Source: a virus
Lineage: Duplodnaviria; Heunggongvirae; Uroviricota; Caudoviricetes
DNA: 64,000 nucleotides
IMG/VR virus record: IMGVR_UViG_2695420859_000012
Strand: one strand, 5' to 3'
Shown here: piece by piece, positions 6,450 to 21,592 of the stretch
Layout: every line of letters starts with the position of its first letter
Position numbering within the stretch: position 1 is the stretch's first letter
Made by a program: the position numbers and the translations under genes
Notes under the pieces: model-generated
The model's input: the letters and a program-made list of their open reading frames with translations, nothing else
The model's database searches: none
Told to the model about the DNA's origin: nothing

Positions 6450-6905
6450 TCAACGGGGAGTAATAAAGCGTTCAGAGCCTAATCGCTCTAATTCAACGAT
6501 GGCCATCTTTGACGCCTGAACGATCATGTCTCGGCGATGCGAAAAGGCGGCGACAGCATGTTTGTATATGTCTGCGATGTGCCGTGCTTCATCCAACTTC
6601 TGCCTTTTAGACAGATACTGTGGGTTTGTTTTAACCTTAGCGTCCAGTACAGATTCGTTGAACTTAATGCCGTTCATACTCAAGTTCTTACGCTCTGTGT
6701 CGTATAGCTTTGCTTCAACAGCTTCAAGGTTAAGTTTTGCCTCTGCGACACTTCTTTCTGCATGAGCGAGTTTTGAGCCATACTCCATTAAAAGGCGGGG
6801 TTGTCTACGCCAGACTTCCTCCAGATTGTCTCGGTCAAACTCGAGATCAGACATTATTTTCTCGTAAATATCGGCGATCATGCACATTTCCTTATCACTT
6901 ATCAT
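6450..6905 (-). CDS. Hypothetical protein (position suggests a replication/recombination accessory)
   Basis: 151-aa ORF between SSB and DnaE genes. Confidence 0.4.
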   Translation of the reverse strand: MISDKEMCMIADIYEKIMSDLEFDRDNLEEVWRRQPRLLMEYGSKLAHAERSVAEAKLNLEAVEAKLYDTERKNLSMNGIKFNESVLDAKVKTNPQYLSKRQKLDEARHIADIYKHAVAAFSHRRDMIVQASKMAIVELERLGSERFITPR

Positions 6906-7007: not shown

Positions 7008-8177
7008 TCACGTCTTAATAGTTTCTGCTACGTCGGCTAATATCGCTTCTAGTCGTTCTCCCTCTTCAGGTCTGAAGTAAAGAATGTTGGGGTTAAACCC
7101 GTAAAAGACAGTAACGTCAAGGTCTGGAAGATACTCCTTCCTGCCGACCAAATCGGATGGCTTGTTTTTGTTGTTAAACAATGAAGTTGCCCGGCTGCCA
7201 CACGTCAGCACATAGGTCGGACGCACCAGATTGATCTCTTCACGCATAAAGTCGGTGAACTGGCCGATCTCGTCTTTGGTGTAGTCTTTTTCTTTGTCTT
7301 TAACCTTCTTGCAAACACCTGTGACATAGAGATCGCCCATGCGTAAATCTCCAGCCGTCAATAGCTTGGCCTTAAAGTCGTCGTATCCGTTCTCCATAAA
7401 GTAACCGGTTCGAGCATCATTGCCGTTCGCATTGTCCAGAATGATCATGATTTTCGGCTTAATACCAATGCTGGGGCGGATTAGTTCATCACCTAAGCCC
7501 ATTTCAGCCGCCATCCGCGTCATGAGTACGTTAATTTCAGCCGAACGTTTGGGGTTCATCTCAAACGGACGTGAGGCTTTAACTGCGTCTATGACAAGGT
7601 TTCCCATCAATTCAGCCTGGTCGCGTAGGCGCTCTGGATCAGTTGCTGGCAGACTGCCTGGCTCGATGGATGCAAACGCCCCTACTTTTTGCAGCGATTC
7701 GCGCACTCGACTATTACAGGCACGTTTCTCGACAGCTTCTTCGAATTGCGCCAGTGACTCGAATTTGCCGCCAACTTTTTCTCGCGCTCTCATGATGGCT
7801 TGGCAGCCATTCTCAGAACACCCCTTCACAGCAGAGAAGGGCGCATACAGCACCTGGCTGCCATCTTCAAGCGTGCGGATCTCGATTCGGTTAGATGACA
7901 CGTTAACGTCTGGTGGCAATACGCGAATGCCATAGGTCAGCGCATCTTTAACCAGCCCCTGGTGTTTATCTTCGCCAAGAATAGTGAGAGCAGCAGCGAA
8001 AAACTCTGCGGGATAATGAGTTTTCAACCACATAGATTGATAACTGATTAAGGAGTAAGCAACAGAGTGTGATTTGTTGAAGGCATACGCGCCGGATTTC
8101 TCAAACATATTCCAGATTTCTTCGGCTCGTTCGTGCGTCAGGCCATTGCTCTCTTCGACAACACCGGTAATTTTCAT
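7008..8177 (-). CDS. dnaE: DNA polymerase III alpha (DnaE-type), C-terminal fragment
   Basis: ERAEEIWNMFEKSGAYAFNKSHSVAYSLISYQSMWLKTHYPAEFFAA matches the DnaE finger region as recalled; GAGG 7 nt before the ATG, which overlaps the HNH stop (ATGA). Confidence 0.8.
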   Translation of the reverse strand: MKITGVVEESNGLTHERAEEIWNMFEKSGAYAFNKSHSVAYSLISYQSMWLKTHYPAEFFAAALTILGEDKHQGLVKDALTYGIRVLPPDVNVSSNRIEIRTLEDGSQVLYAPFSAVKGCSENGCQAIMRAREKVGGKFESLAQFEEAVEKRACNSRVRESLQKVGAFASIEPGSLPATDPERLRDQAELMGNLVIDAVKASRPFEMNPKRSAEINVLMTRMAAEMGLGDELIRPSIGIKPKIMIILDNANGNDARTGYFMENGYDDFKAKLLTAGDLRMGDLYVTGVCKKVKDKEKDYTKDEIGQFTDFMREEINLVRPTYVLTCGSRATSLFNNKNKPSDLVGRKEYLPDLDVTVFYGFNPNILYFRPEEGERLEAILADVAETIKT

Positions 8178-8908
8178 GCAGTCACCTCATCAATCTTCAC
8201 GAACTCATACCCATTGGAGGCCAGCCAGTTCCGTTGGCGCTCCCAGCTCCATATCTCTTCACGCATTTCACTATGCAGGCGAATGTGGGCGTCTTCTGGA
8301 AGTGCTACAAGATTCCCAGGGGCGTTATCTATCGTATCGCGGTTAATATGGTGGACATGTTCATCGTCACGTAGCTCCCGACCGAGACGTTCTTTCGCTA
8401 TCAATCGATGAACGTATTCGTATTGCGAAACGCCATTGTTACCAACCAGCTGCATCATGTAGCCGTTGGTTTTTACGATGATGCCACCTTTGTAGTTGTT
8501 CGCTTCTTCTCCGATCTTTCCGCGTTTGGCAGCCGCCAGCTTTTCCTTCGTCTCCGCGCGGATTGTTCTGCCGGTTAGCTTTTTCGAAACGGTGGCCACT
8601 CGCTCATCGATATCAGCACGCAGACCGGCATTCCACGAGGTTTTCCCATACATAGGGTTGCCAGTGCCAGTCCGGGCTTCGGAGAGACGCTTCATACGTT
8701 CGTCATTATTTTTGTTTTTGCCACGATTCCAGGCTGGGGTAGCGGAGATCCGCGCGCTTCCGCGCCTGATCCCCCATTTGGCTAATAAGCGGTCAATATT
8801 TGCCTTGCTGCAACCAGCTTCGGCGGCAATGTCTTCTTTTCTCATCAGGTCAACCATGTAACGCTGACGTAACCATTCTTCTGTGATTTTGTACTTCGTA
8901 CTCGGCAT
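8174..8908 (-). CDS. HNH homing endonuclease inserted within dnaE
   Basis: HNH motif EHVHHINRDTIDNAPGNLVALPEDAH; separate frame and start. Confidence 0.8.
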   Translation of the reverse strand: MPSTKYKITEEWLRQRYMVDLMRKEDIAAEAGCSKANIDRLLAKWGIRRGSARISATPAWNRGKNKNNDERMKRLSEARTGTGNPMYGKTSWNAGLRADIDERVATVSKKLTGRTIRAETKEKLAAAKRGKIGEEANNYKGGIIVKTNGYMMQLVGNNGVSQYEYVHRLIAKERLGRELRDDEHVHHINRDTIDNAPGNLVALPEDAHIRLHSEMREEIWSWERQRNWLASNGYEFVKIDEVTA

Positions 8909-8956
8909 TTCTAAGACTCACTAAACAAATTGTTTTCTTATCTTATAAATTAATTC

Positions 8957-11320
8957 TCAAATATCGAAGCTCGTTATGTCGGCATTTATTGCCATTGCTT
9001 CGGCATAAGTGCGACGCTCACCATCAGCACAAAGTAGGCGTGCTGCTTTATGGATTTTTCTCGTAGAACCATCATCCAGTGACACTGTCACCCAGCCTTC
9101 CTCCGCTCGCTTAATGAAGTCGCCGCCAATGGATTTCATTTTCTCCATATCTTTTTTCCCGATCGCTTTCCTGACCGAGTCTGCTTCCGCCATTGAGAAC
9201 CCCGCCAAGATTCGCGTAGCAGCCATGATCTGTTCCTGATAAATCAGAACTCCGTTTGTGTCGCGAGAGATGTCGTCCAGCATTGGGTGTAAGGAATGTG
9301 GGGCCATGAAGCCTTTGGCCACGGACACATAATCGTCCAACATGCCGGATTGAATCGGGCCAGGTCGGAAGAGCGCAGTTGTAGCGACGACCGTTTTAAA
9401 GCTCATTGGCTCAATTCCACCACCTAAATCTTTAAGCAGCTTGCGCATTGGGCCTGATTCAAGCTGGAATACGCCCTGTGTATACCCTGCAGCAAAACCA
9501 TCCAGCACCTTGCGATCTTCAAGAGAAATGGCATCAAGATTGATATCTTCACCTGTGTTCTCTTTTATGTAGCGTTTTGCACTATCGAGCAAATCGAGAG
9601 TTGCCAGGCCAAGCACGTCCAGCTTAATTAGGCCCATAGCCTCGCAGTAACGCTTGTCAAATGCGATACAACGCGCGTCACCACGGCGTTCAACCGGTGT
9701 ACGTTCTGTCAGAGGAACACCTGCTACGATCATCCCTGCCGCATGTCTACCAAAGCCACGCATAAGGCTTTGTAACTTGCAGGCTGCATTGAATGCATCA
9801 GGATATTTTGTTGCGTATTTGTCGAGACTTGCCAGTTGTTCGCGCAGCTCTTCCAATGGAAGGCTATCATCCTCGACGTTCTTCAGTTCTTTTGATACCG
9901 CCATATCTGCGGACTCCACACCATAAATACGAGCGGTGTCACGTAGTGCAGAGGCTGCGCCCAGGTAGGTGAAGTTCGGAATGCCTGCAACGTAATCTTC
10001 GCCGTAGCGTTCATTCAGATACTCGATCACCTCATGGCGACGTGCCTGGCTGAAGTCCAAGTCCGCATCCGGCAAGTCGAGACGCTCAGGGTTGATGAAA
10101 CGCTCAAACAGAAGACCGTGACGGATTGGGTCGACGTTGGTTATGCCTATGCACCACGCCACCAGAGAACCGGCAGAGGAACCACGACCAGGCCCGACAG
10201 GAATGCCAGTTTCACGGCTGTGATTCATCAGATCGCGTACCATCAGGAAGTAACCACAAAATCCCAGGCGAGTAAGCGTGTCCATTTCGTACTTAAGTCG
10301 CTCAACATAAACCCTGTTCTCAGAAGCAGGTGGTGTGTATCCAAACTCTTTTGTGGTAAGACGTTTACGCAGCCCTGCAACAGCCAGTTTCATCAGCGTT
10401 GCAGGTTCGTCGTCTGCCATCTTGGGCAGTGCTGGTGGCAATTCATGCCAGCGCCATGTGCAGGCATCGATAATGGAGTCCTGCGTTGTTGAGGCCATTG
10501 CAGCTGTTACCGGCACATCCATGCGAACGGAGAAGGCTTTAAGCGCCTCAAGGAGATGGCGACGACCATTGATGGCGTTATCTCGCTGGTGGGGGATACG
10601 CAGACGATGCGGCTGGTCGATTTTTATGTTGTTCGTAACCATGTGCGCAATGTCTTTAATGTCTGCATCGTCGATCGATTCGTAATAAGCGGGATAGAAC
10701 GCTACTGGCTCTATTTTCAGTGCGCTGGCGACTTTCATCGCCCGGACGTTAATCTGGTCGTAGAATGGGGTAGGGTGCGGATAAACCACACTATAGAAGT
10801 TGTCTTTTCCACCCGCTGTAATCAGTGTGCTTATGATTTTTGCAAAATCGTTGCGTTGGAACACGCTACCGATGTCGGAAGTAAGCAGGATGATGTTGCC
10901 TTTGGCATATGTAGAAACCAACTGTTCGAGCGAGAGACGCGGTACAAAGTAGAACTGTTCTCGTGTGTTGGCCGCCGTCATTAGTTCGCAGATGTCGCGA
11001 TATCCTTTCTCATTTTTAATTAGAGCGGTAAACGAGTAGTTACGTCCTCGCTCTAATGATTCCATACATCTCATAGATTCTTTAGCAAGTTTAGCCCGGT
11101 GCTCGTATGTGGGATCATCAACAATGTTTAGTTTCACACCACAAATAACCGCCATGTCGTCACCAGCGGCACGTTGTAGTGGAATAACGCTCGCAATATT
11201 CATGCTATCTGCTGAAATTACAGCGGTGTAGCCAGCTTCTCTGGCAATCTTCACCGCGTTTTCTGCTTTTAGAGCCGACTCCCCAAGTGAGAAGTCAGTT
11301 CGAACCATCAGTGCCTTCAT
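8957..11320 (-). CDS. dnaE: DNA polymerase III alpha (DnaE-type), N-terminal part
   Basis: GYFLMVRDLMNHSRETGIPVGPGRGSSAGSLVAWCIGITNVDPIRHGLLFERFINPERLDLPDADLDF matches the DnaE catalytic core as recalled; ORF stops 44 codons after the point where similarity to uninterrupted DnaE ends. Confidence 0.85.
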   Translation of the reverse strand: MKALMVRTDFSLGESALKAENAVKIAREAGYTAVISADSMNIASVIPLQRAAGDDMAVICGVKLNIVDDPTYEHRAKLAKESMRCMESLERGRNYSFTALIKNEKGYRDICELMTAANTREQFYFVPRLSLEQLVSTYAKGNIILLTSDIGSVFQRNDFAKIISTLITAGGKDNFYSVVYPHPTPFYDQINVRAMKVASALKIEPVAFYPAYYESIDDADIKDIAHMVTNNIKIDQPHRLRIPHQRDNAINGRRHLLEALKAFSVRMDVPVTAAMASTTQDSIIDACTWRWHELPPALPKMADDEPATLMKLAVAGLRKRLTTKEFGYTPPASENRVYVERLKYEMDTLTRLGFCGYFLMVRDLMNHSRETGIPVGPGRGSSAGSLVAWCIGITNVDPIRHGLLFERFINPERLDLPDADLDFSQARRHEVIEYLNERYGEDYVAGIPNFTYLGAASALRDTARIYGVESADMAVSKELKNVEDDSLPLEELREQLASLDKYATKYPDAFNAACKLQSLMRGFGRHAAGMIVAGVPLTERTPVERRGDARCIAFDKRYCEAMGLIKLDVLGLATLDLLDSAKRYIKENTGEDINLDAISLEDRKVLDGFAAGYTQGVFQLESGPMRKLLKDLGGGIEPMSFKTVVATTALFRPGPIQSGMLDDYVSVAKGFMAPHSLHPMLDDISRDTNGVLIYQEQIMAATRILAGFSMAEADSVRKAIGKKDMEKMKSIGGDFIKRAEEGWVTVSLDDGSTRKIHKAARLLCADGERRTYAEAMAINADITSFDI

Positions 11321-15251: not shown

Positions 15252-15457
15252 TCAATCAATCCATTCTAACTTATACTATGGTAAGGAATACTACTAAAAT
15301 TTATATCAATACTGAATACATTCATATCATATGCAAGTTAATTTTCTTACCTGTTTTGGGCTAATTTTTCTCCGTGCAATGGCCTTTAACCGGTCTTTTA
15401 AGTGCCTATCGAAAAAAATGATAATAGCTTTACAACCCTAACCTTTGATGTAATATC

Positions 15458-15471
15458 GGTAAGCACTTACC
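15458..15471. promoter_or_regulatory. Dyad GGTAAG-CA-CTTACC upstream of the XRE regulator gene
   Basis: 14-bp palindrome about 30 bp upstream of the ATG at 15503. Confidence 0.4.
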
Positions 15472-15502
15472 AGAGAGAATTGAACGCGCAAAGGTTGTAA
15501 CA

Positions 15503-15889
15503 ATGTCTGACAACAAGATTGAATTTATAGAAAGTCGCTATGCTGCTTTTATCGCAGGGCTGATTGAATCCTCACCTATGAGTCAGGCCCAAATAGCCAG
15601 ACTTATTGGTTATAAAAATGCCAACAACCTTTCTTTAATTAAAAGTGGCAAAATTCCTTTGCCTATCGATAAGGTTCGTCCGTTGGCGCTGGCGCTGGGT
15701 ATTGAGCCAAGTCGTCTTATGATGATGGTGCTGGAAGAACGCCAACCTGAACTCGCAGCATTTTTATACAAAGAAGGCACCGCTCCTCTTAACGAGGACG
15801 AAAAACAGGTTCTTGCTGCATATAACGAGCGATTCGGTAAAGAGAAAGGCGCATCACAAAAGGTTGTTGAGGCCATAAAGTCTCTATGA
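15503..15889 (+). CDS. HTH transcriptional regulator (XRE-like)
   Basis: HTH-like segment MSQAQIARLIGYKNANNLSLIKSGK; plus strand, 3' end overlaps recombinase 3' end. Confidence 0.6.
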   Translation: MSDNKIEFIESRYAAFIAGLIESSPMSQAQIARLIGYKNANNLSLIKSGKIPLPIDKVRPLALALGIEPSRLMMMVLEERQPELAAFLYKEGTAPLNEDEKQVLAAYNERFGKEKGASQKVVEAIKSL

Positions 15890-16987
15890 AAAATTTACAC
15901 GAATAAGCTCTGTTGATAGACGATCTCCCTTGAATTTGTGGTCAATTTCGTCTAAATCCGGTTGCTCTACGATTGATGCGATGTACGTCGAGAAACTTTC
16001 TAAGGCGTCTCGCATCTCGTCCATATAATCGTGCCGGTCGTAGACTCGATCTATCCCCTCAAGACTGTGGTTCATGATTTTGCGTGATACCTCCTGGCTT
16101 ATGCCTAATGCTGGGAAGTAACTACGCGCAGTGCGGCGCAAGTCTCGGGGTGTAAATGGCTCAAGCTCCATCAGTTCTGGTCGTTCCAGAATACGACGTA
16201 ATGCCTGGGCTATTGCCACTTTAGACATAGGAAGGTCTTTCCCGATTTTTTTATTCGAAGGCACGAGCCACTGGCTGCCTTTACCGTATTCGAACAACTC
16301 TTCAATGCATGTGCGCATTAATGAGCTTAAAGGCAGAGAATGCTCACGGGCAGATTTGTTCCTCTTGCCTTGATTCCAAACCCCACGCTTAAGATTGAAC
16401 TCACTTTTTTTAGCCCGCAGTACTTCGTCAGGTCGTCTTGCGGATACAAGACATAGCCTGGCCGCCCATTTTGTACCAGCACACACATTGAAGTAGTCCC
16501 ATATATTCCAGAACACCCATACCTCTGCGTCGGTTAGCTTCCGCTCGCGAGGTGTGGGCTTTGCGCCACCGGCAACTTTGTTAAGTGACATATCGTTTAA
16601 CGGTGACACGTCGATCATCCCCTGGAAGGCGCACCAGCTGAGGAACTGCTTCATCAGAGAGAAAACGCGGCGACCCATAACAATTTTGCCATCCAGTATT
16701 AGTGGGTTGACCAGTTGGTTCACCATGAACCTATTAATATCACTTACTTTTACATCGGCAATGTGCGGCAAAACATGTATCAAAATACAATGAACAGCGA
16801 TCTCTGGCCGACGTCTTGTTATCAGCAGAGATAAGCGAGTGAATAACATGAATGCGTCCGAGAATCTCATGTCATTGCTGACCTGGGAGATCATAACGGC
16901 CTGCATTTGAGATGCTCTTTCGAGATACTCAATCGCCTCTTTTGAGGTGTTCTCCGCAGCGCGTGCTCTGTCAAAGCTATTTTTCAT
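15884..16987 (-). CDS. Tyrosine site-specific recombinase / integrase family
   Basis: LVSARRPDEV (catalytic Arg box), RDLRRTARS (HxxR-box variant), NHSLEGIDRVYDRHDY (nucleophile Tyr region). Confidence 0.75.
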   Translation of the reverse strand: MKNSFDRARAAENTSKEAIEYLERASQMQAVMISQVSNDMRFSDAFMLFTRLSLLITRRRPEIAVHCILIHVLPHIADVKVSDINRFMVNQLVNPLILDGKIVMGRRVFSLMKQFLSWCAFQGMIDVSPLNDMSLNKVAGGAKPTPRERKLTDAEVWVFWNIWDYFNVCAGTKWAARLCLVSARRPDEVLRAKKSEFNLKRGVWNQGKRNKSAREHSLPLSSLMRTCIEELFEYGKGSQWLVPSNKKIGKDLPMSKVAIAQALRRILERPELMELEPFTPRDLRRTARSYFPALGISQEVSRKIMNHSLEGIDRVYDRHDYMDEMRDALESFSTYIASIVEQPDLDEIDHKFKGDRLSTELIRVNFS

Positions 16988-17085
16988 ATGACAATCACCG
17001 AGTTACGCCGATGCACTGTATAAGTAAACAGTATATTAGGCATAGATTCTTATAGGATCAAGAGTAAAAGTAACTCATTTTCAGT

Positions 17086-17118
17086 AATGATTCCATACAT
17101 AGTAGGTATGGAATCATT
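17086..17118. other. Candidate recombination core site: 13-bp inverted repeats flanking a 7-bp spacer
   Basis: AATGATTCCATAC (17086-17098) / ATAGTAG / GTATGGAATCATT (17106-17118); arms are exact reverse complements; 130 bp upstream of the recombinase start. Confidence 0.45.
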
Positions 17119-17237
17119 GTAGGCCTTTTTTATAAAATCTGTGATTCTTCTCAGGATAAATTATCTAAACTAAAAATTGTGTTTTGTGTTGGCATCTGCT
17201 TGAATAGACGCATGTTTATTCAGATATGGAATAATCA

Positions 17238-17774
17238 GTGAACAACCAAATTCATTGGGACTACCCATTCTCAGAAGAATTCGGCAGTGGGATGGTACAC
17301 AGACAATTCACTGTGGGAAGCACTATTTATGCCGTTGGGTTTGAACAAATATTGACGATGGATGATTTCACACGTAAGGGAGTTGATATCCTAAATGTAC
17401 ATCCAACATTCCGGTTTCCTCTGAGTGGTGTATGGGGAGTGATTTTTGACGAAATTGACCCTGTAGAAATGGATTTCAAAGGATTTCGGCATATCCAACA
17501 TCAAGGCTTGGCAGGTGGTCAAGTGCTTTTGAATGTTGCAAGTATAATCTTTGACCATTATACTGTTTGTAACGCAGGAGCTTATGTCTTCTCCGCCGCA
17601 GACGACCATCAGCATTTACGCAGAACTGACTTGGTAGACATTTACTGTAAGATACTAGGTCTAAATGGAAAACGTAAAAGTAGATTGTTCGCCAATGGTT
17701 TTCCTGGATGGGAGGCATACTGTGATGTACCAACAGGAGGAAGAGGCTATGTCGTCACGACTGAAAGTTATTAA
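17238..17774 (+). CDS. Hypothetical protein, weak GNAT-like motif
   Basis: 178 aa; QHQGLAGGQVLL loosely resembles GNAT motif A; plus strand in accessory island. Confidence 0.4.
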   Translation: MNNQIHWDYPFSEEFGSGMVHRQFTVGSTIYAVGFEQILTMDDFTRKGVDILNVHPTFRFPLSGVWGVIFDEIDPVEMDFKGFRHIQHQGLAGGQVLLNVASIIFDHYTVCNAGAYVFSAADDHQHLRRTDLVDIYCKILGLNGKRKSRLFANGFPGWEAYCDVPTGGRGYVVTTESY

Positions 17775-17976
17775 TTATTACCCCACCTCTGCAGAACGTT
17801 TGAGCCTTGAAATGGGCGAAAGACTACAGAAAGCTGCTGGTCAGGATTTAAAGAACAAGTTGGGTTCAGGGGAAATTAAACTGATTAACGGTAAATATGT
17901 AGGTGAAAGCCTGAAAGTTAATAGCACCTCTATGCTAAAAGCGCGGTTGCGTAAAGCGTATATCTCCGCTAAATGA
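17749..17976 (+). CDS. Small hypothetical protein, overlapping downstream partner of 17238..17774
   Basis: Re-called start ATG at 17749 behind AGGAGG (MSSRLKVINYYPTSAERL..., 75 aa); track ORF 17665..17976 starts further upstream. Confidence 0.35.
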   Translation: MSSRLKVINYYPTSAERLSLEMGERLQKAAGQDLKNKLGSGEIKLINGKYVGESLKVNSTSMLKARLRKAYISAK

Positions 17977-18005
17977 AAAGGCCTATATGGGCCTTTTCAT
18001 TTTTA
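17976..18005. terminator. Intrinsic terminator hairpin between convergent genes
   Basis: aaaaggcc-tatatg-ggcctttt followed by cattttta. Confidence 0.6.
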
Positions 18006-18248
18006 TAGTGTACTCACCAGCGCCGCAAATTCCGTATACCCCCCAATATGCTCTCCATGTATGAATATCTGAGGTATGGTATCCACTGGTTTACCAACCT
18101 GGTTGCTCAACGTTTCTTTGTTGATCCCCGCAGATGTAATATCTATATACTCATAATCACCGTAGCCATGTCCCTTTAGTTGCTTCGCCAACTCGACCGC
18201 ACGTTTGCAGTATGAGCAGTTATCTCGTCCGTAGATAGTGATCGTCAT
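18003..18248 (-). CDS. Glutaredoxin (NrdH-like redoxin)
   Basis: 81 aa with CSYC active site (MTITIYGRDNCSYCKRAVELA). Confidence 0.8.
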   Translation of the reverse strand: MTITIYGRDNCSYCKRAVELAKQLKGHGYGDYEYIDITSAGINKETLSNQVGKPVDTIPQIFIHGEHIGGYTEFAALVSTL

Positions 18249-19427: not shown

Positions 19428-19505
19428 TCACAGCGTTGAGCGGTCTGGTTTATGTTAGCGGAGTCTTAATCGAGTTGATTAAAAGGCCAAACCGCTCAAC
19501 GCTGT
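19428..19505. repeat. Long stem-loop (15-bp inverted repeat cacagcgttgagcgg / ccgctcaacgctgtg) abutting tRNA-Ser 3' end
   Basis: Perfect 15-bp arms, about 48-nt loop. Confidence 0.6.
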
Positions 19506-19507
19506 GT

Positions 19508-20086: not shown

Positions 20087-20161
20087 TTGGCGATGGTGGG
20101 TGGATTCGAACCACCGACCAGTTGGTTAACAGCCAACTGCTCTACCGCTGAGCTACACCAT
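20087..20161 (-). tRNA. tRNA-Asn (anticodon GUU), CCA encoded
   Basis: Acceptor GAUGGUG/CACCAUC, anticodon stem GUUGG/CCAAC with loop CUGUUAA, T-loop GGTTCGAATCC. Confidence 0.75.
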
Positions 20162-20430
20162 CAATTCAGCACTGCCAGTATTTATTACTCAACAGTGCCA
20201 ATCGCGACGGTTTAGTTTCTGCCAGGAAACGCACCGCTACTTGCACTTTTCGTTAGTGCCAGACGCTTTCGACTTCGCTCAATAGTAGAAGGCAAAATCT
20301 TTAAGTAGATGATGTTTCTGAGGACAGCACCTACTTTGTAATTTATACAATGTGATGTATGGAATCATTTGTTGTGAAAACAGGCACCAATGGCAACAGT
20401 GGTTAAACCTACACAACAATCCCGTCTTCA

Positions 20431-20550
20431 CAACGTTGAGGCCACTACTCCGATTGAATGTTTGCCCAACATGTTACATATCAACGCTCGCCGGTATCTC
20501 TGTGAATAGAACCTTAGAATTGATAAAAATGTAATGGCCTCAACGTTGTG
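20431..20550. repeat. Long stem-loop (cacaacgttgaggcc / ggcctcaacgttgtg)
   Basis: Perfect 15-bp inverted repeat, about 90-nt loop; shares CACAACG start with the other tRNA-region stem-loops. Confidence 0.55.
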
Positions 20551-20711
20551 TGCTGGCTAACCATACCAGCCGGGCTACGTCGCCGCTTTTTAACCCAGTA
20601 TAAACGACATAATTGAACAAAATGACGTAACAGGATGGGCGGTCAGTGGCTAAGAATCCGGGAGTCATATGGAGTTGAAAATATACCAACCGCCCATTCT
20701 GTTACTTCATC

Positions 20712-20735
20712 GGAGGGAACATGAATGTTCCCTCC
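20712..20735. repeat. Perfect palindrome ggagggaacat-ga-atgttccctcc
   Basis: 11-bp arms, 2-bp spacer, no T-run. Confidence 0.6.
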
Positions 20736-20940
20736 TGCGTTCTGCAATCACACTCGCTCAGTGTGTCCCATTTCGGTAACGAGGCTGGAAACTGACCTCG
20801 CTGGTGTTTGGCTTATTAGGCTACTGCCAGATAGACTTCTTCGTTTGCACTTGTATTTAAGTTCAAACAGTCGCGTCTCAACGAAAACAAAGTCATCTTA
20901 TACATAAAAGATAGGTAAGTAAATACTTATCGAAATGTTT

Positions 20941-21231
20941 TTATTCGGTTGTGACTTTTTTGATCAAGGCCACTCTACGATCAGGTGTTCTTGTGATGGT
21001 GGCAGTGAATCGTTTCGCTTGGATAGTAATGGTTTCGTTCTCATTAAGTTGCCCGTAGCGAGTTTCCACAAGGGTACCAAGACGCCACAGGCCATCATCA
21101 ATACGTTTATGGCTAGCAAATTTAATCAGCAGCAGTTTTACGACTAACTGCCCTACGTAAAAAGCGAATGCGACTCCGGCTGCCATAAAATAGGTTGCCA
21201 ACCACCATTCCCAAGAAGTTAAATTGCTCAT
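20941..21231 (-). CDS. Small membrane protein
   Basis: 96 aa with N-terminal hydrophobic segment. Confidence 0.4.
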   Translation of the reverse strand: MSNLTSWEWWLATYFMAAGVAFAFYVGQLVVKLLLIKFASHKRIDDGLWRLGTLVETRYGQLNENETITIQAKRFTATITRTPDRRVALIKKVTTE

Positions 21232-21376
21232 TTTCTCACCTTTGTTTCATGAACTACCCGATACACACGCTTTCCGATGCACAGTGTTTTGGTTTTAAGT
21301 TCCTGCTTAATTAAGTCACGACAGATGCCGAAGCCGATAAGGAAGCCACCCATAAAAGCTAATGAGATGTATGGAA
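21224..21376 (-). CDS. Very small membrane protein (not in ORF track)
   Basis: Own translation: MIPYISLAFMGGFLIGFGICRDLIKQELKTKTLCIGKRVYRVVHETKVRK; start coincides with one copy of the GTATGGAATCATT motif. Confidence 0.3.
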
Positions 21377-21592
21377 TCATTTTAACACTCCTGATTCTAC
21401 TAATTGCTGTAGCAATACTTTCCCTTTATCAGTTAACTGGTAGTTGGCCGAACACTTCGTTTCAGAAACGTTTGCAACCAACCCTAAACGCTCTAACTTA
21501 GCTCGCGTTTTAGGCTTCCAGTACTCAGGGAACTCCGGCCACTTACTGATTTCATGAAGCGTTTCCTTCTCCCGTTTACTTAATACGATCAT
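21377..21592 (-). CDS. Small hypothetical protein
   Basis: 71-aa ORF. Confidence 0.4.
   Translation of the reverse strand: MIVLSKREKETLHEISKWPEFPEYWKPKTRAKLERLGLVANVSETKCSANYQLTDKGKVLLQQLVESGVLK

Follow-up and report, generated by a model that had tools for sequence, protein, structure and literature searches.

Recombinases of phage-plasmids are expected to resolve plasmid multimers, the role assigned to Cre in P1 (PMC7969092), and for Cre-type enzymes it has been validated experimentally that an intergenic palindrome near the recombinase gene is the target of the enzyme (PMC4957104). Here we describe a comparable arrangement in 64,000 nt of DNA from a member of the Caudoviricetes (IMG/VR record IMGVR_UViG_2695420859_000012), a stretch that we refer to as the window, in which a 33-bp palindrome lies beside a gene for a tyrosine recombinase. 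On the basis of sequence comparisons, we assign a probability of about 0.65 to the reading that the palindrome serves the adjacent recombinase as its core site, with multimer resolution as the most likely purpose. As in Cre-loxP of P1 and in Dre/rox, Panto/pox, and Nigri/nox, there is one recombinase gene with one nearby intergenic site, and as in loxP two 13-bp inverted arms enclose a short asymmetric spacer, the carrier is a plasmid prophage, and multimer resolution is the expected function. Unlike Cre-type 13-8-13 sites, however, the site described here has a spacer of 7 bp, and the protein is unrelated by sequence to the Cre-type enzymes.

A 3-kb stretch of the window that we compared is 100% identical to the Escherichia coli plasmid pM160133_p3 (NZ_CP022167.1, 113,428 bp), and the same stretch is close to hundreds of non-mobilizable plasmids of ~110 kb. 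Because these plasmids encode phage structural genes together with dnaE, a primase, a helicase, a ligase, and tRNAs, we assign the window to the phage-plasmids of the SSU5/pHCM2/pMT1 type.

Linkage of the palindrome to the recombinase

The palindrome (17086-17118), AATGATTCCATAC-ATAGTAG-GTATGGAATCATT, has a 13-7-13 layout with arms that are complementary at 13/13 positions, which bears out the lox-like geometry noted in a preliminary description of this DNA, and an inverted-repeat scan of the window extends the complementarity to 16-nt arms at 94%. It is intergenic, with the recombinase gene on one side and a rightward open reading frame (ORF; 17238-17774) on the other. The preliminary description placed the site 130 bp upstream of the recombinase gene, which is right for the far edge, since 131 bp separate the start codon (16987) from the end of the far arm, but not for the near arm, which is 98 bp from that codon. 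The spacer is 7 bp long in all 143 related loci examined, and its sequence varies among the relatives (ATAGTAG, TTAATAG, TTGTAAG, and others; general form, TTnnnAG). In both of the arm classes described below, the spacer found most often is TTAATAG, which can lie in either direction with respect to the gene; because the near symmetry of the spacer and the perfect arms make flips easy, we did not count spacer flips as evidence of activity.

The linkage of palindrome and recombinase was examined in two sets of loci. The first was obtained by scanning IMG/VR for the two arms with any spacer between them and comprises 80 loci, 79 of which have a recombinase homolog (59–100% aa identity) 75–130 bp from the palindrome; this set is biased, as its arms are fixed by the search. 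Therefore, we collected an unbiased set by searching GTDB genomes by alignment of recombinase homologs without any DNA pattern. Among the 65 loci found in this way, 63 have a full-length homolog, and all 63 carry a 13-7-13 palindrome upstream, at 44–252 bp from where the protein match begins.

Two classes of arms can be distinguished. Class A arms (GTATGGAATCATT) go with recombinases that are at least 57% identical to that of the window, in E. coli, Klebsiella-type elements, Citrobacter, Kluyvera, Buttiauxella, Yersinia pestis (pMT1), and Chimaeribacter. Class B arms (GTCTGGAGTCAYA) go with recombinases that are 45–52% identical to that of the window, in Rahnella, Pantoea, Erwinia, Ewingella, Hafnia, Xenorhabdus, Photorhabdus, and Morganella. 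The differences between the classes are chiefly at arm positions 3 and 8 and are mirrored in both arms. In the protein-ascertained set, arm identity is 100% in class A and 93–95% in class B, compared with 38–56% in the 30-nt flanks; the left arm is identical in all class A relatives, in which the flanks are 40–56% identical. Three second paralogs from Chimaeribacter (L137, L142, and L146) form a third group with hybrid, slightly imperfect arms. The Chimaeribacter hybrid site (at about 6863-6903), TGTGACGCCAGAC-TTATTAG-GTATGGAGTCACA, has arms that are not fully complementary, with a right arm that blends features of class A (GTATGG) and class B (AGTCACA); such a site may represent an intermediate stage of a switch in specificity. 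With two arm classes in two protein clades and hybrids in a third group, site specificity appears to follow the recombinase clade, and the two natural classes and the hybrids offer a case for the analysis of shifts in recombinase specificity.

These data also bear on an alternative raised in the preliminary description, a family of asymmetric repressor operators. The palindrome and the single copies of its arm that occur elsewhere in the window would then be operators of the neighboring helix-turn-helix (HTH) protein or of the recombinase acting only as a repressor, as with the asymmetric operators of C1 that are dispersed in phage P1. The palindrome does lie in a divergent intergenic region, 25 bp upstream of the candidate -35 element of the recombinase gene; class B loci have -10-like hexamers (TAGAAT, TAAAAT) 12–35 nt past the arm on the gene side, so that binding would probably affect the promoter; and the HTH gene is adjacent in all SSU5-like elements. 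However, a homolog of the HTH gene (15503-15889) is absent within 7 kb from most class B loci and from the class A Chimaeribacter loci, and because the palindrome is kept there, it tracks the recombinase and not the HTH protein. Moreover, the arms remain unchanged although the HTH protein diverges faster than the recombinase (44–66% versus 59–86% identity). Of the four single copies, two to three fall within coding sequence or on a start codon and not at promoters, and no promoter-like site was found in about 20100-21500. We consider the operator explanation unlikely. Given the position of the palindrome, immediately upstream of the recombinase promoter region, its occupancy may also affect expression of the gene, and such autoregulation is compatible with a recombination site and is no rival to it.

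The recombinase matches the Pfam models Phage_integrase (PF00589, e value 4e-10) and Phage_int_M, and Pfam identifies no arm-binding domain in it, neither PF13356 nor any other. A sequence search against PDB chains, Cre included, gave no match at e values up to 1. In a Foldseek search with an AlphaFold model of the protein (pLDDT 82), the best matches were the core-binding and catalytic domains of lambda Int (e value 1e-7), followed by Tn1549 Int and Xer proteins; the fold is thus nearer to lambda Int and Tn1549 Int than to Cre, which was matched at about 0.07–0.1. Residues R184/R185, K211, R284, and Y316 are invariant in the family alignment and, assigned by spacing, are candidates for the catalytic residues. 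Unlike in the usual H-x-x-R motif of integrases, the first His seems to be Arg in this family, in which R281-D-L-R284, aligned by spacing, is invariant. More distant homologs (26–34% identity) are P4-type integrases that bear an arm-binding domain. The protein resembles the lambda/P4-type integrases in its core-binding and catalytic fold, its Phage_int_M and Phage_integrase domains, and the 7-bp overlap; a 7-bp overlap region is typical of the lambda-Int family, so the spacer fits this lineage. Unlike the lambda/P4-type integrases with attP sites, the system has no arm-binding domain and no arm-type sites, and its 13-mer arms are symmetric. By descent, the recombinase appears to be a lambda/P4-type enzyme that lost, or never had, an arm-binding domain, and in function the recombinase and the palindrome would resemble Cre-loxP.

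Neither 13-mer is present in any searchable paper, the matches to the 11-mer being unrelated primers, and for pMT1 and pHCM2 we found no publication that deals with the recombinase or its site. The recombinase–site pair is an uncharacterized, widespread family within a known kind of system. A probable target site can be defined, from sequence alone, for a large uncharacterized family of tyrosine recombinases that spans the SSU5/pHCM2/pMT1-type phage-plasmids, including Y. pestis pMT1, and megaplasmids of Pantoea, Erwinia, and Rahnella, which makes the maintenance biology of these elements testable. With a 7-bp spacer and a non-Cre scaffold, the pair could also yield genome-engineering tools that do not cross-react with Cre.

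Copy number and proposed function

Each of 180 plasmids in PLSDB carries exactly one palindrome. Among 5,426 complete E. coli genomes, the palindrome is present in 206, with one copy each, all on a plasmid and none chromosomal, and in these 206 genomes we detected no split or hybrid sites and no chromosomal partner site. Many of the class B loci are on labeled plasmids or on very large plasmid-like contigs of Pantoea, Erwinia, and Rahnella. Large plasmids commonly require multimer resolution, and as there is one site per replicon and the element is never found integrated, this is the most likely job of the site. The locus thus has the sequence features that characterize a simple tyrosine-recombinase core site, namely arms of ~11–14 bp, an asymmetric spacer of 6–8 bp, an adjacent recombinase gene, and covariation with it, as well as what would be expected of a multimer-resolution site, that is, one plasmid-borne site per replicon and no chromosomal partner. 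Linkage, covariation, independence of the HTH gene, and copy number all favor the suggestion of the preliminary description, a lox-like core site for the recombinase that could serve dimer resolution.

In the proposed mechanism, two recombinase monomers would occupy the two 13-bp arms, two such sites would pair, and strands would be exchanged across the asymmetric 7-bp spacer. The main outcome would be the resolution of plasmid multimers into monomers, functionally like Cre-loxP of P1.

An integration site was the other possibility mentioned in the preliminary description, in which case the palindrome would be an attP for chromosomal integration. The gene is annotated as a "site-specific integrase," the nearest structural relatives of its product are the lambda and Tn1549 integrases, and the LexA-like box before the gene (see below) would suit a reaction linked to induction. 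Nevertheless, attP cores share identity with a chromosomal target, and the 206 E. coli genomes with the element contain no chromosomal copy of the palindrome, nor any integrated copy of the kind found in lambda-type integration. The palindrome is unsplit beside the gene in every locus examined in the IMG/VR and GTDB sets, although integration would split it, the recombinase lacks an arm-binding domain, and the perfectly symmetric 13-bp arms are unlike attP cores. An attP function is, in our judgment, quite improbable.

Features of the palindrome, its surroundings, and the single copies of its arm in the window
Feature	Position	Strand	Remarks
Tyrosine recombinase gene, 367 aa	15884..16987	-	Proposed partner of the palindrome
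Left 13-bp arm, AATGATTCCATAC	17086..17098		Proposed site of one recombinase monomer
Spacer, ATAGTAG, 7 bp, asymmetric	17099..17105		Proposed strand-exchange (overlap) region
Right 13-bp arm, GTATGGAATCATT	17106..17118		
Likely recombinase promoter region	17014..17061	-	Read from the sequence
Candidate -35, TTGATC	Reverse complement of 17056-17061		Palindrome 25 bp upstream of it
Candidate -10, TAATAT	Reverse complement of 17033-17038		17 nt from the -35
LexA-box-like 20-mer, CACTGTATAAGTAAACAGTA (CTGT-N8-ACAG)	17014-17033		16/20 to consensus; between -10 and start codon
T-run and ATAAAATCTG	17126..17141		Degenerate conserved flank motif, on the side away from the recombinase gene
Variable accessory-gene slot	17119..18002		Here with ORFs 17238-17774 and 17749-17976
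Single copy in dnaE	11055..11067; 14-mer 11057-11070	-	Codes C-M-E-S-L
Degenerate copy in recombinase gene, GTTTGGAATCA	16371..16381	-	Codons V-W-N-Q
Single copy, non-coding, upstream of tRNA cluster	20357..20369; 14-mer 20354-20367	+	Invariant alignment block
Single copy at start of 50-aa ORF	21369..21381; 14-mer 21366-21379	+	On 71-aa ORF stop codon and 50-aa ORF start codon

Flanking motifs and the cargo slot

Between the palindrome and the recombinase gene, the candidate -35 and -10 elements match the consensus at 8/12 positions and are not listed by a sigma-70 scan, so that we propose the recombinase promoter only tentatively. The CTGT-N8-ACAG of the LexA-like box is kept in the Citrobacter, Y. 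pestis pMT1, and Kluyvera loci, and this conservation suggests control of the recombinase gene by the SOS response. On the other side of the palindrome, the flank pattern N9-T(5-7)-(G/A)AAWTYTG or its complement CAGAWTT is kept in both arm classes whatever the neighboring gene. The distance of this motif, a T-run with an AAATCTG-like sequence, is fixed at about 10–25 nt outside the arm (window and L088–L150). Since both arm classes have it, the motif does not covary with the arms, and it could be a site for a host factor or a promoter element.

The same flank bears on the proposal that the palindrome is an RNA hairpin, that is, an intrinsic terminator that insulates two divergent transcription units. 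A scan of the plus strand does flag the palindrome, with 15 pairs, a 7-nt loop, and the tail AGGCCTTTTT. However, no gene on the plus strand ends at the palindrome, the stem has only 4 G-C pairs, the T-run is ~9 nt past the stem in most relatives and missing in many class B loci, and the unpaired single copies are conserved as sequence and not as structure. A terminator is extremely improbable.

The DNA to the right of the palindrome is a slot for accessory genes, and the two ORFs that occupy it in the window have no family match. Homology to relatives with other cargo stops exactly at the outer edge of the right arm (17118/17119) and restarts either at the 3′ end of grxA (18003) or to the right of it, and this mosaic junction at the outer edge of the arm is found in at least six cargo variants. 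Among other E. coli plasmids, the slot holds a YafO-family toxin pair in one locus (L005, 7620-8785) and is shrunk to 98 bp in another (L006, 7620-7717), and in Citrobacter, Yersinia, and some IMG/VR contigs it contains several kilobases of other cargo. The site borders a cargo hot spot with turnover of toxin–antitoxin and other accessory genes. The sharpness of the left boundary is compatible with exchange through the site and also with homologous exchange within its 33 identical bases. At the right boundary, at the 3′ end of grxA, no recombination site was detected, so the slot is not a cassette system, and an integron-like cassette model was rejected because the palindrome is on one side of the slot only. 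As a separate observation, a near-perfect palindrome (AAATGAAAAGGCCTAT/ATGGGCCTTTTCATTT) at 17971-18002, between the convergent ORF 17749-17976 and grxA (18003-18248), resembles a bidirectional terminator.

Single copies of the arm

The exact 13-mer GTATGGAATCATT is present in five copies in the window, compared with 0.002 expected in 64 kb on both strands, and with up to two mismatches there are six matches compared with 1.6 expected, a number that was reached in 0/100 shuffles of the window. The whole of plasmid NZ_CP022167.1, over which the 13-mer was counted as the preliminary description had suggested, contains only the same five exact copies, and these span at most 10.3 kb. The two recurrences to the right of the palindrome that had been noted there are both exact; a further exact copy, on the minus strand within dnaE, had been overlooked.

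Across the relatives, single copies are found in four conserved places: dnaE, the recombinase gene, the tRNA leader, and the start of a 50-aa ORF. They share a 14-mer block, GATGTATGGAATCA, which is shifted 3 nt toward the spacer side relative to the arms of the palindrome. The copy in the recombinase gene, degenerate in the window, is an exact GATGTATGGAATCA in the Citrobacter, Klebsiella-type, Kluyvera, and Yersinia relatives. The 50-aa ORF (21228-21380, minus strand) is unannotated and hydrophobic, begins with MIPYI, and has a full-length match to phrog_6302; its Shine-Dalgarno sequence AGGAG is 7 nt upstream, and the stop codon of the preceding 71-aa ORF overlaps its start codon. (In other records, this ORF is labeled "hypothetical protein" or "C-type natriuretic protein.") A Citrobacter plasmid of 109,688 bp has the 11-mer core six times, as two arms and four single copies, within 13.2 kb. 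In every locus, the single copies point away from the palindrome, as its own arms do, and all of them are within about 7 kb of it. They are confined to the SSU5-like lineage: class B elements have ~9 matches away from the palindrome (with at most one mismatch) compared with ~13 expected, and thus no half-sites beyond chance, and the codons within class B recombinase genes are ordinary.

The same 14 nt code for C-M-E-S-L in dnaE, for V-W-N-Q in the recombinase gene, and for M-I-P-Y in the 50-aa ORF, where the opposite strand is read, and the dnaE copy is an island of identity amid diverged coding flanks. In phage-plasmids of Xenorhabdus and Morganella, the corresponding DnaE stretch is not conserved (EELLPID, EPVLDYK, QELLPVS) and the motif is absent, so that in the SSU5-like lineage the DNA motif dictates the protein sequence. 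Because one 14-mer appears in three reading contexts with diverged flanks, and because DnaE is unconserved where the motif is missing, we rejected chance or coding coincidence as an explanation. At the tRNA-leader copy, indels disrupt the frame, and small ORFs starting with MYGII or MIPYI were therefore rejected there as the cause of the conservation; the MIPYI start is only partly relevant to the copy at the 50-aa ORF. The single copies are under selection at the level of DNA, and as half-sites they impose a DNA motif on protein-coding sequence. What sets the system apart is these conserved half-sites, which face outward and are embedded in genes.

The single copies could instead act as RNA. 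All these genes are on one strand, so the left and right copies are complementary in RNA: the dnaE mRNA (in relatives, also the recombinase mRNA) carrying GAUGUAUGGAAUCA would pair with transcripts that hold the complement, that is, the minus-strand transcripts of the 50-aa ORF start and the tRNA leader, and such pairing could block the start codon of the 50-aa ORF. In line with this, the dnaE and 50-aa-ORF copies share 20 identical nt in the window, and the motif spans the start codon of the 50-aa ORF, with its Shine-Dalgarno sequence close by. Yet pairing leaves the identity of the copies to the arms unexplained, identity beyond GAT does not covary among the copies within genomes, no Rfam family is found at the sites (Rfam identifies tRNAs only), and the fact that all copies are within 7 kb of the palindrome points to an action in cis at the level of DNA. 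An action as RNA therefore seems doubtful, as does the block of the 50-aa start codon that it would entail.

A role in replication is a further possibility, with the palindrome and its AT-rich flank as part of a lytic origin and the single copies as initiator-binding sites. Phage origins are often inside coding sequence, the palindrome is among replication genes (dnaE, primase, helicase, and ligase), and an A/T tract flanks its arm. Against this, the palindrome and gene module is also found on Pantoea and Rahnella megaplasmids that do not have this replication module, and the sites are single and kilobases apart and do not form clustered iterons. An origin is very improbable, and RepA iterons were likewise rejected, as repA of the plasmid is ~19 kb away and the sites are not clustered.

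Nor do the single copies behave as crossover sites. By eye, no second arm is present within 20 nt on their spacer side, and probes across them are intact in 209/210 and 242/243 complete E. coli records, which indicates that they are not active crossover sites at the level visible in assemblies. An inversion between the dnaE and 50-aa-ORF copies, both of which have ATGAGAT next to them in the window, was rejected on the same counts, as no rearrangement was found; the 7 nt beside the single copies do not match between copies in most lineages, so the sharing of ATGAGAT is not general. Rci/sfx shufflon sites have one conserved arm, a 7-bp spacer, and an unconserved other arm, and they invert DNA. 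The half-sites are like them in the single conserved arm and unlike them in that the DNA across them is intact, for which reason a shufflon-like inversion system was also rejected.

The identity of the single copies to the arms, their confinement to the neighborhood of the core, and their restriction to one lineage argue for the binding of monomers in cis and not for recombination, and our leading guess, made by analogy, is that the single copies bind recombinase monomers without recombining. The half-sites would have been written into tolerant coding stretches (dnaE, the recombinase gene itself, and the start of the 50-aa gene) and into the tRNA leader, and their role could be regulatory, architectural, or that of a local reservoir, comparable to XDS around dif. 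It is possible, though this is a tentative suggestion, that the recombinase has a second job that does not involve recombination, in which monomers on the three to four outward-facing half-sites organize or regulate the replication module. Bound monomers might then serve as polar roadblocks, loop anchors, or unloaders, as a plasmid-scale counterpart of XerD and XDS. As far as the account in PMC11840125 goes, XerD unloads SMC complexes at XDS in Bacillus subtilis (citing Karaboja et al. 2021), and the resemblance lies in a full site ringed by isolated dif-like sites that work without recombination. The differences are that the present system is on a plasmid, is on a kilobase scale, and has a recombinase of another family, and that in this account the link to SMC is known only for XerD/XDS. 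If the recombinase binds the half-sites, this would add a second case in which isolated half-sites of a recombinase serve a purpose unrelated to recombination.

TnpI of Tn4430 and Tn5401 also uses one motif that forms an inverted-repeat core and occurs in extra single copies with accessory or regulatory roles, and in Tn5401 copies of the TnpI motif are also found kilobases away in the transposon ends. Unlike the repeats in TnpI sites, which are within about 100 bp of the core or in the termini, the half-sites described here are 0.7–7 kb off and embedded in coding sequence, with no transposon. For loxP, we know of no conserved satellite half-sites.

Several points weigh against the palindrome being a core site for multimer resolution. 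Equal covariation would be expected for any other protein with a gene in constant linkage to the recombinase gene, although none was found. The conservation of the arms and the mosaic junctions would also be expected of an essential element that acts as a patch for homologous recombination, and the TTAATAG spacer is conserved across both classes beyond what a free crossover region needs. The LexA-type box that appears to precede the gene is not what a housekeeping resolvase obviously needs, and it could mean that the enzyme acts during induction. Finally, the single copies have no second arm, and their block consists of GAT and 11 nt as opposed to the 13-nt arm; their 3-nt shift may reflect a different binding mode or a different binder.

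Some further features of the element were noted in passing. The HTH gene (plus strand) diverges from a leftward operon composed of a 70-aa ORF, a CobT-like gene, an AAA ATPase gene, and dnaE (divergent region 15252-15502), and it converges with the recombinase gene, their 3′ ends overlapping by 6 nt (15884-15889). Such an arrangement points to control of the replication operon by the HTH protein and to antisense transcription from the recombinase gene into the HTH gene. The dnaE gene is broken in the window, with a frame from 11320 that stops at 8957 (787 aa), whereas dnaE of the relatives is uninterrupted and 3519 nt long; ~1 kb at about 8082-9125 with an HNH endonuclease ORF (8174-8908, minus strand) replaces ~210–250 nt of the relatives. 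Rfam identified no intron family in it, and the interruption may be a mobile intron or a homing-endonuclease insertion. In NZ_CP139126.1 (218,363 bp), an SSU5-like plasmid is fused to DNA with resistance genes (TEM-1, sul2); fusion through the palindrome was rejected, since the junctions are copies of a Tn3-family transposase in the region of the tRNAs and a 96-aa ORF. Long-stem inverted repeats beginning with CACAGCGTTGAGCGG and CACAACGTTGAGGCCACT (19429-19506 and 20429-20550) flank the tRNA cluster, and a 27-nt block, ACTTGCACTTTTCGTTAGTGCCAGACG, upstream of tRNA-Asn (20239-20265) is invariant but for one position in diverged relatives.

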